Assembly: GCA_041742075.1 (NCBI GenBank)
Contig: JBGSJJ010000011.1
Location: 1-61,915, forward strand
Reading direction: 5' to 3'
From: Minisyncoccia bacterium
GTDB lineage: Bacteria > Patescibacteriota > Minisyncoccia > Phycocordibacterales > UBA918
DNA length: 61,915 nt
Position numbers and translations under genes: made by a program
Notes under the pieces: generated by a model
Seen by the model: the letters and a program-made list of their open reading frames with translations, nothing else
The model's database searches: none
Told to the model about the DNA's origin: nothing
In this document: positions 19,913-58,923 of the stretch, in pieces
How the letters are laid out: each line of letters opens with the position of its first letter
Position numbering within the stretch: position 1 is the first letter of the stretch

Positions 19913-20023
19913 TGCGAGGTCCACGAGGATTCGAAAAGCTTTTGAGATAGATTTGACTGAAAGGAAAATATATCCAAAAGGTATACTGGTCATGTAATGA
20001 CCGAAACTCCTCGTGGGCCCGCA
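19913..20023 (+). repeat. tRNA-tail mimic element, type 1 (Trp copy)
   Basis: TGCGAGGTCCACGAGGA is a near-complete antisense of the tRNA-Trp 3' end. It is followed by TTCGAAAAG, a core 44 nt identical to the Leu-CAA copy, TATACTG, hairpin GGTCA-TGTAA-TGACC, then TCCTCGTGGGCCCGCA (identical to the tRNA tail). Confidence 0.85.
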
Positions 20024-20096
20024 GTAGCAAACAAAACAAACCAGAAGCGCGAGCTTCTGGTTTGTTTTGTTTAGAACGAGCACTTCTGCTCGTTCG

Positions 20097-20278
20097 GCTA
20101 CTGCGGGAGCCGGAGCGGTGTGAGCTTGCGAACCGCGAGGCGGGGTCGCGAGCGCGAGTGGCGACGAGCGACTTGTGACCGCAAGGGAGGTCCACGAGGA
20201 TTCGAAAAGGTTAACTAATATTTTGTGACGCAGGAGCAAAAATATTGATAACCTGTACTGATACTGTAAGAATCGAAA
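20097..20278 (+). repeat. Variant tail-mimic element: inverted copy of the preceding tail, a GC-rich junction module and a type 1-like core, but no 3' tail
   Basis: GCTACTGCGGG (20097-20107) is the reverse complement of CCCGCAGTAGC (20018-20028). It is followed by AGCCGGAGCGGTGTGAGCTTGCGAACCGCGAGGCGGGG, then GGTCCACGAGGATTCGAAAAGG, P2 GGTTA...TAACC and TGTACTGA...TGTAA. Confidence 0.65.
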
Positions 20279-37650: not shown

Positions 37651-37852
37651 GTGCGTGAGCTTGCGTGGGGTGGACTTGAAAACCTTGTGTGACAGATTCG
37701 ACCAGAGGAGAATATGTCCACAAGGTGTACTGAACCTGTAAGGTTCAAGTCCTCTTCTTACAGAAGCTGTATACCTTATCAGTATTCCTCGCTTCGCTCA
37801 GAATACTAGATAAGGTCTTGCAAAGTGCTCCCAGCACTTTTCACCCGCGCAC
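37651..37852 (+). repeat. tRNA-tail mimic element, type 1 (Leu-TAG copy 1), with its tail split by a nested type 2 module
   Basis: GTGCG-TGAGCTTGCG-TGGGGTGGACTTGAA, P2 ACCTTGTG...CACAAGGT, GTACTGA, hairpin GAACC-TGTAA-GGTTC, CAAGTCCTCT, then an 88-nt insert, then CCCGCGCAC. Confidence 0.85.
37756..37843 (+). repeat. type 2 module nested between the T-stem copy and the acceptor copy of the duplicated Leu-TAG tail
   Basis: TCTTACAGAAGCTGTAT, P2 ACCTTATCAGTATT...AATACTAGATAAGGT, CTTGCAA, hairpin AGTGCT-ccc-AGCACT, TTTCA. Same 88-nt length and same first 22 nt as 45644-45731. Confidence 0.8.
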
Positions 37853-56490: not shown

Positions 56491-57735
56491 ATGGAACAAA
56501 TTAAAACAGACGTTGAATCCTTTGCACGTATTCGTGTCATCGGTGTTGGAGGTTCAGGAAACAATGCAGTCAACCACATGGTCTCTTCAAAGATTAAGGG
56601 CGTTGAGTTTATTGCTATAAACAGTGACGCACAAGACCTACACCACTCACTCGCGAAGAAAAAGATTCACGTTGGCAAAAACCTCACTCGTGGTCTTGGT
56701 GCCGGCGGTAACCCAGACATGGGCCGCAGAGCAGCTGAAGAAACTCGTGAAGAGATTGCGAACTCACTCAAAGGCTCAGACATGATCTTCATCACTGGTG
56801 GTATGGGTGGTGGTACTGGTACTGGTGCTGCACCGGTCGTCGCTAAGATAGCGAGAGACAGTGGCGCCCTCACTGTGGGTGTTGTAACAAAGCCTTTCCT
56901 CTTTGAGGGTCAGGAACGAATGCGCCTCGCTCTCCAAGGTATTGAAGAACTGAAGAAAGAAGTAGACGCACTCATCACCATCCCAAATGATCGACTCCTC
57001 GCTATCGTGGACAAGGAAACAACTGTCCGTAGTGCCTTCGGCATGTGTGACGACATCTTGAAGCAAGCAGTTGAAGGTATTTCAGACCTCATCACGATGC
57101 CTGGTATCATCAACGTCGACTTCGCCGACATCAGAAGTGTCATGGAAAACGCTGGTTCAGCGCTCATGGGTATTGGTCTCTCAACTGGTGAGAAGCGAGC
57201 CGAAGAAGCAGCCCGCGCTGCCATCAATTCCCCACTCCTTGAAGTATCTATAACTGGAGCTAAGGGTGTCCTCTTCGCTATCGCTGGTGGAGATGACCTC
57301 GGTATGCTTGAAATCCAAGACGCTGCTCGGGTGATAACTGAAACCATCGACCCACACGCCAAGGTTATCTTTGGAGCAATCAAGGACGACAAACTTAAGA
57401 AGAATGAAATCAAGGTCACTGTCATCGCTACCGGCTTCCCTGAACCAGGCGGTGGCGGAAGTGGTCATAGCAATACGATTGTTCGTACTCCCCCTTCATT
57501 CCAAAGTCACGTGAGTGAACCAAAGGAAGAAGAAGACACTCGTGGAAGAATCTTCAACTCACTTTCAAACCCTCGCAAGAAGGAAGAAGAAGCCACTGAG
57601 GCACAAAATAAACCTCCTCTCTCTAAAATCTCTGACATCAAGCAGGAGTCAAAGCCTGTCGATGCCATCGACGAAGAGGATGATGATGATTGGGGCGCGG
57701 TTCCTGCATTTCTTCGTCGTTCAAAATTAAAATAA
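56491..57735 (+). CDS. ftsZ: cell division protein FtsZ
   Basis: [10 protein letters not shown], tubulin signature [15 protein letters not shown]-terminal peptide [12 protein letters not shown]. Confidence 0.97.
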
Positions 57736-57763
57736 TTTTGAACGCGAAGATGCAGGAACCGCG
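57695..57763. repeat. Inverted repeat of about 30 bp formed by the last 11 codons and stop of ftsZ together with the sequence immediately downstream
   Basis: Left arm 57695-57728 is GCGCGGTTCCTGCATTTCTTCGTCGTTCAAAATT. Right arm 57734-57763 is AATTTTGAACGCGAAGATGCAGGAACCGCG. The reverse complements match except for 3 bulged nt. Confidence 0.8.
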
Positions 57764-57815
57764 AGCCGGAGCGATGTGAGGTGCTATTACTAATGCACCG
57801 AACCAGCGAGGCCGG
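57764..57815 (+). repeat. GC-rich module shared with the tRNA-Trp locus (20108-20145)
   Basis: AGCCGGAGCGATGTGAG...CGAACCAGCGAGGCCGGG versus AGCCGGAGCGGTGTGAG...CGAACCGCGAGGCGGGG. Confidence 0.65.
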
Positions 57816-58002
57816 GCAGGAGGTTCTTAACGAACGAAGTGAGTTTAGAAACCTGACGCCGGTGCCAGCCTATCGAATCCCTACCTTCCTTTGAAGTTAA
57901 AATGAATATACAAAACACCGCACCCTCCTCGGGTGCGTTGTTTTGTACTACTGCCTGCGGTACAATATCGTACCTATTAAATAACCCGTAGAGCAAAAAC
58001 GT

Positions 58003-58923
58003 ATGTACGAACTTATAATCATCGGAGGTGGACCAGCGGGTGTTTCAGCCGGAGTATACTCAGCCCGAAAGCAACTGAAAACACTTTTTGTCACTAAGGA
58101 ATGGGGTGGCCAGAGTACGGTTTCGCCTGACATTCAAAACTGGATTGGTACACCAAGTATTGATGGACTAAAGCTAGCGAGCGACCTCAAAGCTCACCTA
58201 CATGCCTACGCAGATGGATACCTCGATACCAAAGACAACACCATGGTCACTCGGATTGAAAAGACTGACACTGGCTTTACCGTCACGCTCGAAAGTGGTG
58301 AGGTACACGAAACAAAAGCGGTCCTTATCACCAGTGGCTCAAAACGCCGTCAGCTACCAGCCCCGGGAGCCGATGTGTTTGAACACAAAGGACTGACCTA
58401 CTGTGCTAGTTGTGACGGACCGCTTTTTGCCGGGCAAGATGTTGCGGTGATTGGTGGAGGAAACGCCGGTTTTGAAACCGCTGCTCAACTCCTCGCATAC
58501 ACCAAAAGCGTCACCTTACTCCAACACGGACCTGCCTATAAAGCTGACCCAGTAACAGTCGAGAAAGTACTTGCCCACCCAAACATGCGCGGTATTTTGA
58601 ACGCCGACGTTGCTGAAGTCCAAGGTGAGACGTTTGTAAACGGCCTTACCTACCGCGATCAAGAGAGTGCAATCATTAGCCTCCCTGTTACCGGTATCTT
58701 TGTAGAAATCGGTATGATGCCAAATACAGACTTCCTCGCAGGTGTAGTGCCACTTGATGACTACAAGCGAGTCGTCATTGACCCATGGACCCAAAAAACT
58801 GAAACACCAGGTATTTGGGCCGCTGGTGATTGTACCAACGTAAAATACCACCAAAACAACATTGCCGCCGGTGATGCGGTCCGCGCCCTTGAAGACATCT
58901 ACCTCACCCTCCGCGCTCGCTAA
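58003..58923 (+). CDS. trxB: thioredoxin-disulfide reductase
   Basis: IIIGGGPAGVSAGVY, redox-active CASCDG, GGGNAGFE. Confidence 0.92.
   Translation: MYELIIIGGGPAGVSAGVYSARKQLKTLFVTKEWGGQSTVSPDIQNWIGTPSIDGLKLASDLKAHLHAYADGYLDTKDNTMVTRIEKTDTGFTVTLESGEVHETKAVLITSGSKRRQLPAPGADVFEHKGLTYCASCDGPLFAGQDVAVIGGGNAGFETAAQLLAYTKSVTLLQHGPAYKADPVTVEKVLAHPNMRGILNADVAEVQGETFVNGLTYRDQESAIISLPVTGIFVEIGMMPNTDFLAGVVPLDDYKRVVIDPWTQKTETPGIWAAGDCTNVKYHQNNIAAGDAVRALEDIYLTLRAR

Follow-up and report, generated by a model that had tools for sequence, protein, structure and literature searches.

The 3' end of the ftsZ gene of this Minisyncoccia bacterium belongs to a small element of about 165 nt that carries its own copy of the last codons of the gene. 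A tail, an anti-tail and a core make up the cassette, which takes the place of gene ends, passes from one lineage to another, and accumulates in stacked arrays of relics. From its architecture and distribution, we consider that this is probably a gene-less insertion element with target-matched arms, which moves as a folded single strand through an enzyme acting in trans. The element family appears to be undescribed, and a full-text literature search found no description of such an element. The window analyzed here is the whole stretch of 61,915 nt from contig JBGSJJ010000011.1 (assembly GCA_041742075.1), and coordinates refer to it unless another contig is named.

The ftsZ gene (56491-57735, + strand, 414 amino acids, identified in the list of open reading frames and by the Pfam domains Tubulin and FtsZ_C) ends in a TAA stop codon at 57733-57735, and the last 40 nt of its coding sequence are element DNA. 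This replacement tail, T_e (57696-57735), runs from the third base of a Gly codon through the last 12 codons to the stop, and forms the 5' arm of a hairpin. It was delimited by the fold, by the point at which the sequences of strain pairs begin to differ (position -37), and by the limit of the anti-tail pairing, also at -37 in 43 of 64 loci. The 3' arm is the anti-tail, T' (57736-57763), which is the reverse complement of the ftsZ tail and has counterparts in 64 of 150 related loci as compared with none of 150 controls. A first-pass annotation of this DNA had proposed that the coding end of ftsZ pairs with a downstream antisense arm, and the fold bears this out: 57696-57729 pairs with 57733-57763 in 31 bp with three bulged bases, and its minimum free energy is -47.4 kcal/mol versus -14.3 +/- 2.7 for shuffled sequences (z = -12.1; 0 of 200 shuffles were as good).

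Directly after the hairpin comes the module AGCCGGAGCG[AG]TGTGAG, which has only two occurrences in the window, one at 57764 and one at 20108 (expected 0.18); that annotation had pointed out that it is shared with the tRNA-Trp locus. The existence of a shared module was therefore correctly recognized, but its extent was underestimated, given that it reaches on to 57859 as a second conserved hairpin. The core thus includes module 1, a rod hairpin (57764-57815; 75.4 bits with the covariance model R1, with compensatory changes), and module 2, a long imperfect hairpin (57816-57859, delimited in the R1 alignment) that ends with CTGAC, the GAC being placed at the junction. The whole copy (57696-57859) has no open reading frame and shows, from 5' to 3', the sense tail of the target gene, the antisense copy that pairs with it, and the two-hairpin core, which we refer to as the type 2 core.

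The DNA beyond module 2 holds two further features that the first-pass annotation had not included. The segment 57860-57905 reads directly as a decayed ftsZ tail (cg-gtg-cca-gcc, a 15-nt insert at 57871-57885, then ttcctt..aag-tta-aaa-tga), and corresponds to the displaced original end of the gene; it has suffered the insert and a small deletion and still keeps the KLK* end, and intact homologous copies occupy the same place in 36 related loci. The insert, tatcgaatccctacc, resembles a tRNA T-loop/T-stem segment, the kind of sequence carried at the right junction by the copies that target tRNA genes; judging from this resemblance, it may be the footprint of another element. Further downstream, a terminator scan identified an intrinsic terminator for the ftsZ transcription unit (57919-57947), the sole terminator-like site 3' of the ftsZ stop in the region 57500-58100. 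The conserved right neighbour is a thioredoxin-reductase-like gene (58003-58923, + strand; open reading frame list and Pfam), which in loci devoid of the element starts approximately 90-300 nt after ftsZ.

To characterize the core, copies gathered from the whole genome and from relatives were aligned (alignment A1), and the covariance model R1 was derived from this alignment. In module 1 the helix P1 is formed by 57765-67 and 57810-12, 57771-72 and 57806-07 are linked by a GC pair, and a variable helix, P2, spans 57776-57803; altogether the module is rod-shaped, with two internal loops that are conserved and purine-rich, GGA/GAG and GAU/CA, and a variable distal helix. Module 2 presents a conserved T.T mismatch within CTTAG/CTTAG, a mini-hairpin loop ACGAAGT of the GNA type, and a closing ..GTGAC sequence. 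Among 36 copies, 97.4% of the cells in the core helices are paired versus 25-44% when the partners are slid, and compensatory changes are present at 19 of the 25 core pairs. In these helices G.T pairs outnumber A.C pairs (41 vs 7), which indicates that the gene-sense strand is the one that folds; the mismatches between tail and anti-tail show no such strand bias (7 G.T vs 5 A.C), and this counts against the insertion model. The combination GTGAG/CGAAC had the look of a K-turn with tandem G.A pairs; this candidate was rejected because other copies have ordinary Watson-Crick pairing in this helix (GTTTTC/GAAAAC), so that GTGAG/CGAAC is one version of a variable helix and the tandem G.A look is not conserved. 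At the gathering score of Rfam the only matches in the window were tRNAs, and a permissive scan added nothing beyond hairpin (miRNA) noise of a generic kind. Rfam gave no support to group II intron domains or to ribozymes, whether hammerhead, HDV-like or other.

The core is a repeated component of this genome, where R1 has 23 matches, and of the genus, where it was detected in 38 of 40 genomes with a total of 435 copies (0-25 per genome). In a phylum-wide sample it was detected in 7 of 301 genomes, under filters stricter than those of the genus search, and from this rarity we conclude that the type 2 core is a lineage-level variant of a wider family. The idea of a phage vector was rejected, since in viral contigs a strict pattern gave no match and the R1 model turned down every one of 37 loose matches. 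In this genome the targets are tRNA genes, tmRNA, rplL (…GAKVTLK*), rplB, rpsI and ftsZ, and in relatives they include clpP (…VDKIYK*), rplL, rpsI and tmRNA. More than 20 different tails bear this core, and each time the arms match their own target. The joining of a shared module to an antisense copy of the tail of the upstream gene, proposed earlier from two loci, turned out to be true of all the well-scoring copies of this genome, and no module lacking an adjacent inverted copy was seen among the clear matches. A matching anti-tail together with a distal sense copy is present at tRNA, tmRNA, rplL, rplB, rpsI and clpP targets; of the 43 tRNA genes in this genome, about half have their own tail repeated after them, first in antisense and then in sense orientation, and the coding sense copies located after the core differ from the in-frame tail only by synonymous changes (6 of 24 nt for rplL, 4 nt for clpP).

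The second core copy of the window (20096-20179, + strand; 40.4 bits with R1) lies at the tRNA-Trp locus; its core is shortened (20108-20179) and is preceded by an anti-tail (20096-20107) that matches a relic of the tRNA-Trp tail. Within it, GCTACTGCGGG (20097-20107) is the reverse complement of CCCGCAGTAGC (20018-20028), and the fragment GTGAGCTTGCG, at 20120, recurs at 37655 and 38065 in both Leu-TAG elements (expected 0.05), as had been noticed earlier. The anti-T-arm of tRNA-Trp (gaggtccacgaggattcgaaaag) is present twice, at 19913-19935 and 20187-20209, and the core sits between the anti-acceptor and the anti-T parts of the second copy, which implies that it is nested in the arm of another element.

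The ftsZ locus was compared in 30 genomes, 80 metagenome contigs and 80 species genomes, that yielded 150 unique loci. An R1 core was found no more than 850 nt from the ftsZ stop in 85 of them, and an anti-tail of at least about 12 bp in 64, as compared with 0 of 150 in a control with shuffled partners. An intact out-of-gene copy of the tail, encoding VPAFLRRSK[LI][KR]*, is present in 36 loci, directly after the terminal GAC of the core; these second copies differ from the in-frame tail on average at about 8 of 36 nt, and all the differences are synonymous. In contrast, 49 loci are empty, that is, they have neither anti-tail nor core, and ftsZ is followed by ordinary, unrelated terminators and then by the thioredoxin-reductase-like gene; the closest relative, with 87% amino-acid identity, is one of these. 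The ftsZ locus is therefore polymorphic between relatives for the presence of the element (85 loci with core, 49 empty), and the comparison, which the first-pass annotation had put forward as a check, identifies the arm and the module as an insertion; that reading has to be extended, since the in-frame ftsZ tail is also part of the inserted DNA (see below). A scan of metagenomes with the ftsZ terminator of this strain retrieved no empty allele, and the absence of a near-identical filled/empty pair for the allele of this window counts against the insertion model. No locus was found to keep the distal arm by itself: the 13 loci with an anti-tail and no R1 match all bear other element cores, for instance the type 1 core GACCTT…AAGGTGTACTG-hairpin, which indicates that ftsZ has been struck by several types of element following the same logic.

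Two loci of this collection deserve a separate description. In L026 (genome G027), a relative of the same order, about 8 tandem copies of a 14-nt unit (agatagtagtaagt) follow the ftsZ stop and fill the ftsZ-trxB spacer instead of an element. On the MAG contig CAXRCZ010000007.1, the loci L187 and L191 (approximately 26-29 kb and 97-100 kb) are 100% identical and have opposite orientation, an arrangement that stems either from a large inverted duplication or from faulty assembly.

The origin of the in-frame tail was revealed by four pairs of near-identical strains, L007/L075, L071/L072, L094/L095 and L157/L161, whose ftsZ bodies are 99.9, 97.1, 99.65 and 97.8% identical, respectively. All four pairs are colinear up to the tail, where 8-16 synonymous differences appear at once together with a different element; the first difference is located at -37, -37, -46 and -31 from the stop, in the same order. 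Conversely, L007 and L072, with ftsZ bodies only 93% identical, have one common tail-plus-element cassette (2 differences in about 210 nt). Given that tail and element switch together within pairs and that a single cassette is common to L007 and L072, the in-frame ftsZ tail is brought in together with the anti-tail and the core. The fact that the tail travels with the element rules out two familiar mechanisms. A target-site duplication produced by a staggered cut is not compatible with two tails that differ by many changes, all of them synonymous, which must have evolved separately as working tails. A transposon with the anti-tail and the distal tail as terminal inverted repeats is also rejected, because the anti-tail matches the in-frame tail and not the distal copy.

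The ends of the inserted DNA can be placed from the same comparisons. As mentioned above, the paired segment starts most frequently at -37, the third base of the Gly codon that corresponds here to 57696, and L094 combines a longer anti-tail with a swap boundary located further upstream; these two facts suggest that the left junction is placed at the base of the tail/anti-tail hairpin. On the right side, the junction would follow the GAC with which module 2 closes. The identity of the relic begins 2-3 nt after the position of the hairpin base, which counts against the insertion model; the same offset occurs at tRNA targets, with an anti-tail that extends to G53/T54 and a relic that begins at T55/C56. 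Downstream of ftsZ in L075, L072 and L007, stacked tail relics are separated by bare module 2 ends (..ttgtgac), in the order relic A, ttgtgac, relic B. Arrays of this kind point to repeated insertion at one site, followed by internal deletion.

Because the arms of this core fit the local tail at each of more than 20 sites, we infer that the tail/anti-tail pair specifies the target. We propose a model in which the element would travel as a folded single strand, its anti-tail would pair with the tail of the target and in this way recreate the geometry of the hairpin base, and the cutting and joining at this base would be done by a putative trans-acting enzyme. Insertion sets the tail of the element in frame with ftsZ, and the resident tail is pushed downstream, where it decays (57860-57905). 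Against the model, the element was not observed in a free, circular or single-stranded form, and between close strains part of the transfer could be due to ordinary homologous recombination. A more general version of this model, which we put forward only tentatively, is that of a natural reprogrammable system of insertion guided by a hairpin, in which one trans-acting enzyme would work at the base of any tail/anti-tail duplex presented to it and the arms would be rewritable. If this were the case, rewriting both arms would be enough to redirect the element to a new site, and the system would persist by always supplying a working gene end, also where the gene is essential, as for ftsZ, clpP and the ribosomal proteins.

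A census of candidate enzymes in the 40 genomes of the genus gives one lead. Y1/HUH transposases are present in 24 genomes, and the mean number of core copies is 13.2 in genomes with such a gene versus 7.4 in those without it (Mann-Whitney p = 0.004, Spearman 0.45, values that ignore kinship); against this link, six copy-rich genomes (at least 8 copies) have no Y1 match. A transposase of the Y1/HUH type is thus the best lead for the enzyme, a lead and not a finding. In this genome the Y1/HUH protein (230 amino acids, with the motif HFHLL) is encoded outside the window, on contig C10 (13745-14443, - strand), and is a distant RAYT-like protein that matches the REP-associated tyrosine transposases weakly (34 bits). 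Its gene is flanked by its own GGCCACCCTTCGC palindromes, which are different from the element and occur 5-7 times in the genome, and the locus looks like a small REP/RAYT-like system.

The census covered four other enzyme families. Serine recombinases (31 of 40 genomes) bear no relation to the number of core copies (p = 0.53), and six genomes with at least 8 copies have none, which does not favour a serine integrase as the mover; the only large serine recombinase of this genome (contig C8, 10420-10857, in a 536-amino-acid frame) adjoins a tRNA-Ser gene (C8, 10173-10260). IS110 DEDD transposases above the cut-off (4 of 40 genomes) and the reverse transcriptase RVT_1 (10 of 40) were discarded as movers since both are absent from this genome, and a single Xer-like tyrosine recombinase gene is near-universal (38 of 40; in this genome on contig C4, at about 71.8 kb), so that its product may be the mover. 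The searches for serine recombinase, IS110 and RVT_1 found no enzyme gene linked to any core copy, which counts against the insertion model.

Several other explanations were weighed against the insertion of a mobile cassette. The element could be a passive structured module of the 3'-UTR, or a small RNA, with a function for the host (e.g. in transcript stability or processing), spread only by homologous recombination after DNA uptake. The strong RNA-like covariation of the core and its G.U pairs agree with this idea, as do the lack of a linked enzyme, the predicted co-transcription with ftsZ, given that no terminator precedes 57919, and the exchange tract of L094/L095, which begins further upstream, at -46. 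However, recombination at a single locus cannot place one core at so many unrelated targets with matching arms, the swaps have a sharp boundary, located at the hairpin base, the stacked relic arrays point to repeated insertion, and the half of the lineages that are free of the element show no sign of a lost function; we regard a passive module as unlikely. Slightly less probable still is that the element is a minimal non-autonomous derivative of integrase-driven islands (CIME-like), moved in trans by the serine or tyrosine integrases that target tRNA tails in Patescibacteria, with the duplicated tail as attL and attR. Accretion of attL/attR sites would indeed look similar, with a directly repeated target tail, a replaced gene 3' end and tandem arrays, and large serine recombinases and Xer-like recombinases are frequent in the genus; nonetheless, integrases recognize fixed sites, yet here one core serves dozens of unrelated sequences, the anti-tail has no role in such a scheme, and the distribution of serine recombinases described above does not follow that of the core.

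The two remaining explanations carry much less weight. In an RNA-guided or retrotranspositional mechanism, a bridge-RNA-like transcript would act with an IS110-type recombinase, or the co-transcript would be copied by a reverse transcriptase. The resemblance of the sense and antisense arms to guide loops, the folding of the gene-sense strand, and the predicted co-transcription of the element with highly expressed genes are compatible with it; but the scarcity of both enzymes in the genus, their absence from this genome, and the lack of any Rfam match, including group II intron domains and ribozymes, make it very improbable. The last one takes the hairpin for a common factor-independent terminator or attenuator that arose locally at the 3' end of ftsZ; it is suggested by a strong hairpin beside a stop codon, and a terminator function had been left as an option in the first-pass annotation. 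This option does not hold: the hairpin is followed by AGCCGGAGCG and not by a T-run, the real terminator is located 155 nt further on, the hairpin is absent from the closest relative and from 48 other loci, and a conserved mobile core and a tail relic come after it. We therefore give this explanation hardly any credence.

The insertion element proposed here shares features with several known systems. One group comprises integrative elements whose insertion gives the target gene a new 3' end, such as the islands that target tRNA and tmRNA genes, and phage 21 and e14 in icd of E. coli. As in these cases, the element is inserted in the 3' end of a conserved gene, a substitute end keeps the gene intact, the displaced end is left as a direct repeat or relic, and copies accrete in tandem; unlike them, it has approximately 165 nt with no integrase or other gene, it includes an antisense copy of the target, and a single core is used at dozens of unrelated targets, five protein genes among them. 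Folded single strands are also recombination substrates in the case of the integron attC sites and of the attP(+) site of the CTX phage, which is used by XerCD. The element resembles these in being gene-less, strand-specific and array-forming, in having an imperfect hairpin that rebuilds a duplex copy of the recombination site, and probably in depending on an enzyme that acts in trans. In contrast with them, it has no R and L boxes and no IntI, its hairpin copies the target itself and not a fixed site, and its targets are gene tails instead of attI or dif.

Similarities also exist with the Y1 HUH systems, i.e. IS200/IS605 with their PATE derivatives and REPIN-RAYT, which are likewise hairpin-rich and non-autonomous. 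Working as a single strand and reading the insertion site by base pairing with an internal guide would be common to both, and the Y1 family is the one that correlates, weakly and with exceptions, with copy number in the genus and has a RAYT-like member in this genome. However, the known guides have 4 nt versus 12-30 nt here, the known elements carry no copy of the target, and the RAYT-like gene of this genome has flanking palindromes of its own. With the IS110/IS1111 bridge RNA (seekRNA) the element would share a programmable choice of target written in a structured non-coding part; in contrast, its arms are long contiguous copies and not split guide loops around a core dinucleotide, and the DEDD transposase is missing from this genome.

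Taken together, these results indicate that horizontally moving DNA routinely takes the place of the last 12 codons of an essential and universally conserved cell-division gene in more than half of the lineages of the genus, while the protein remains unchanged. One small non-coding core reaches tRNA genes, tmRNA and at least five protein genes by means of matched sense and antisense arms, and this suggests that the principle of targeting is base pairing and not the fixed site of a protein. If the enzyme were found, this could turn out to be a very compact programmable insertion system. These elements account for much of the odd intergenic DNA of Patescibacteria, and the family of target-matched elements also overwrites the coding ends of essential protein genes; for this reason, the 3' ends of conserved genes in these genomes may differ in history from the rest of the gene.
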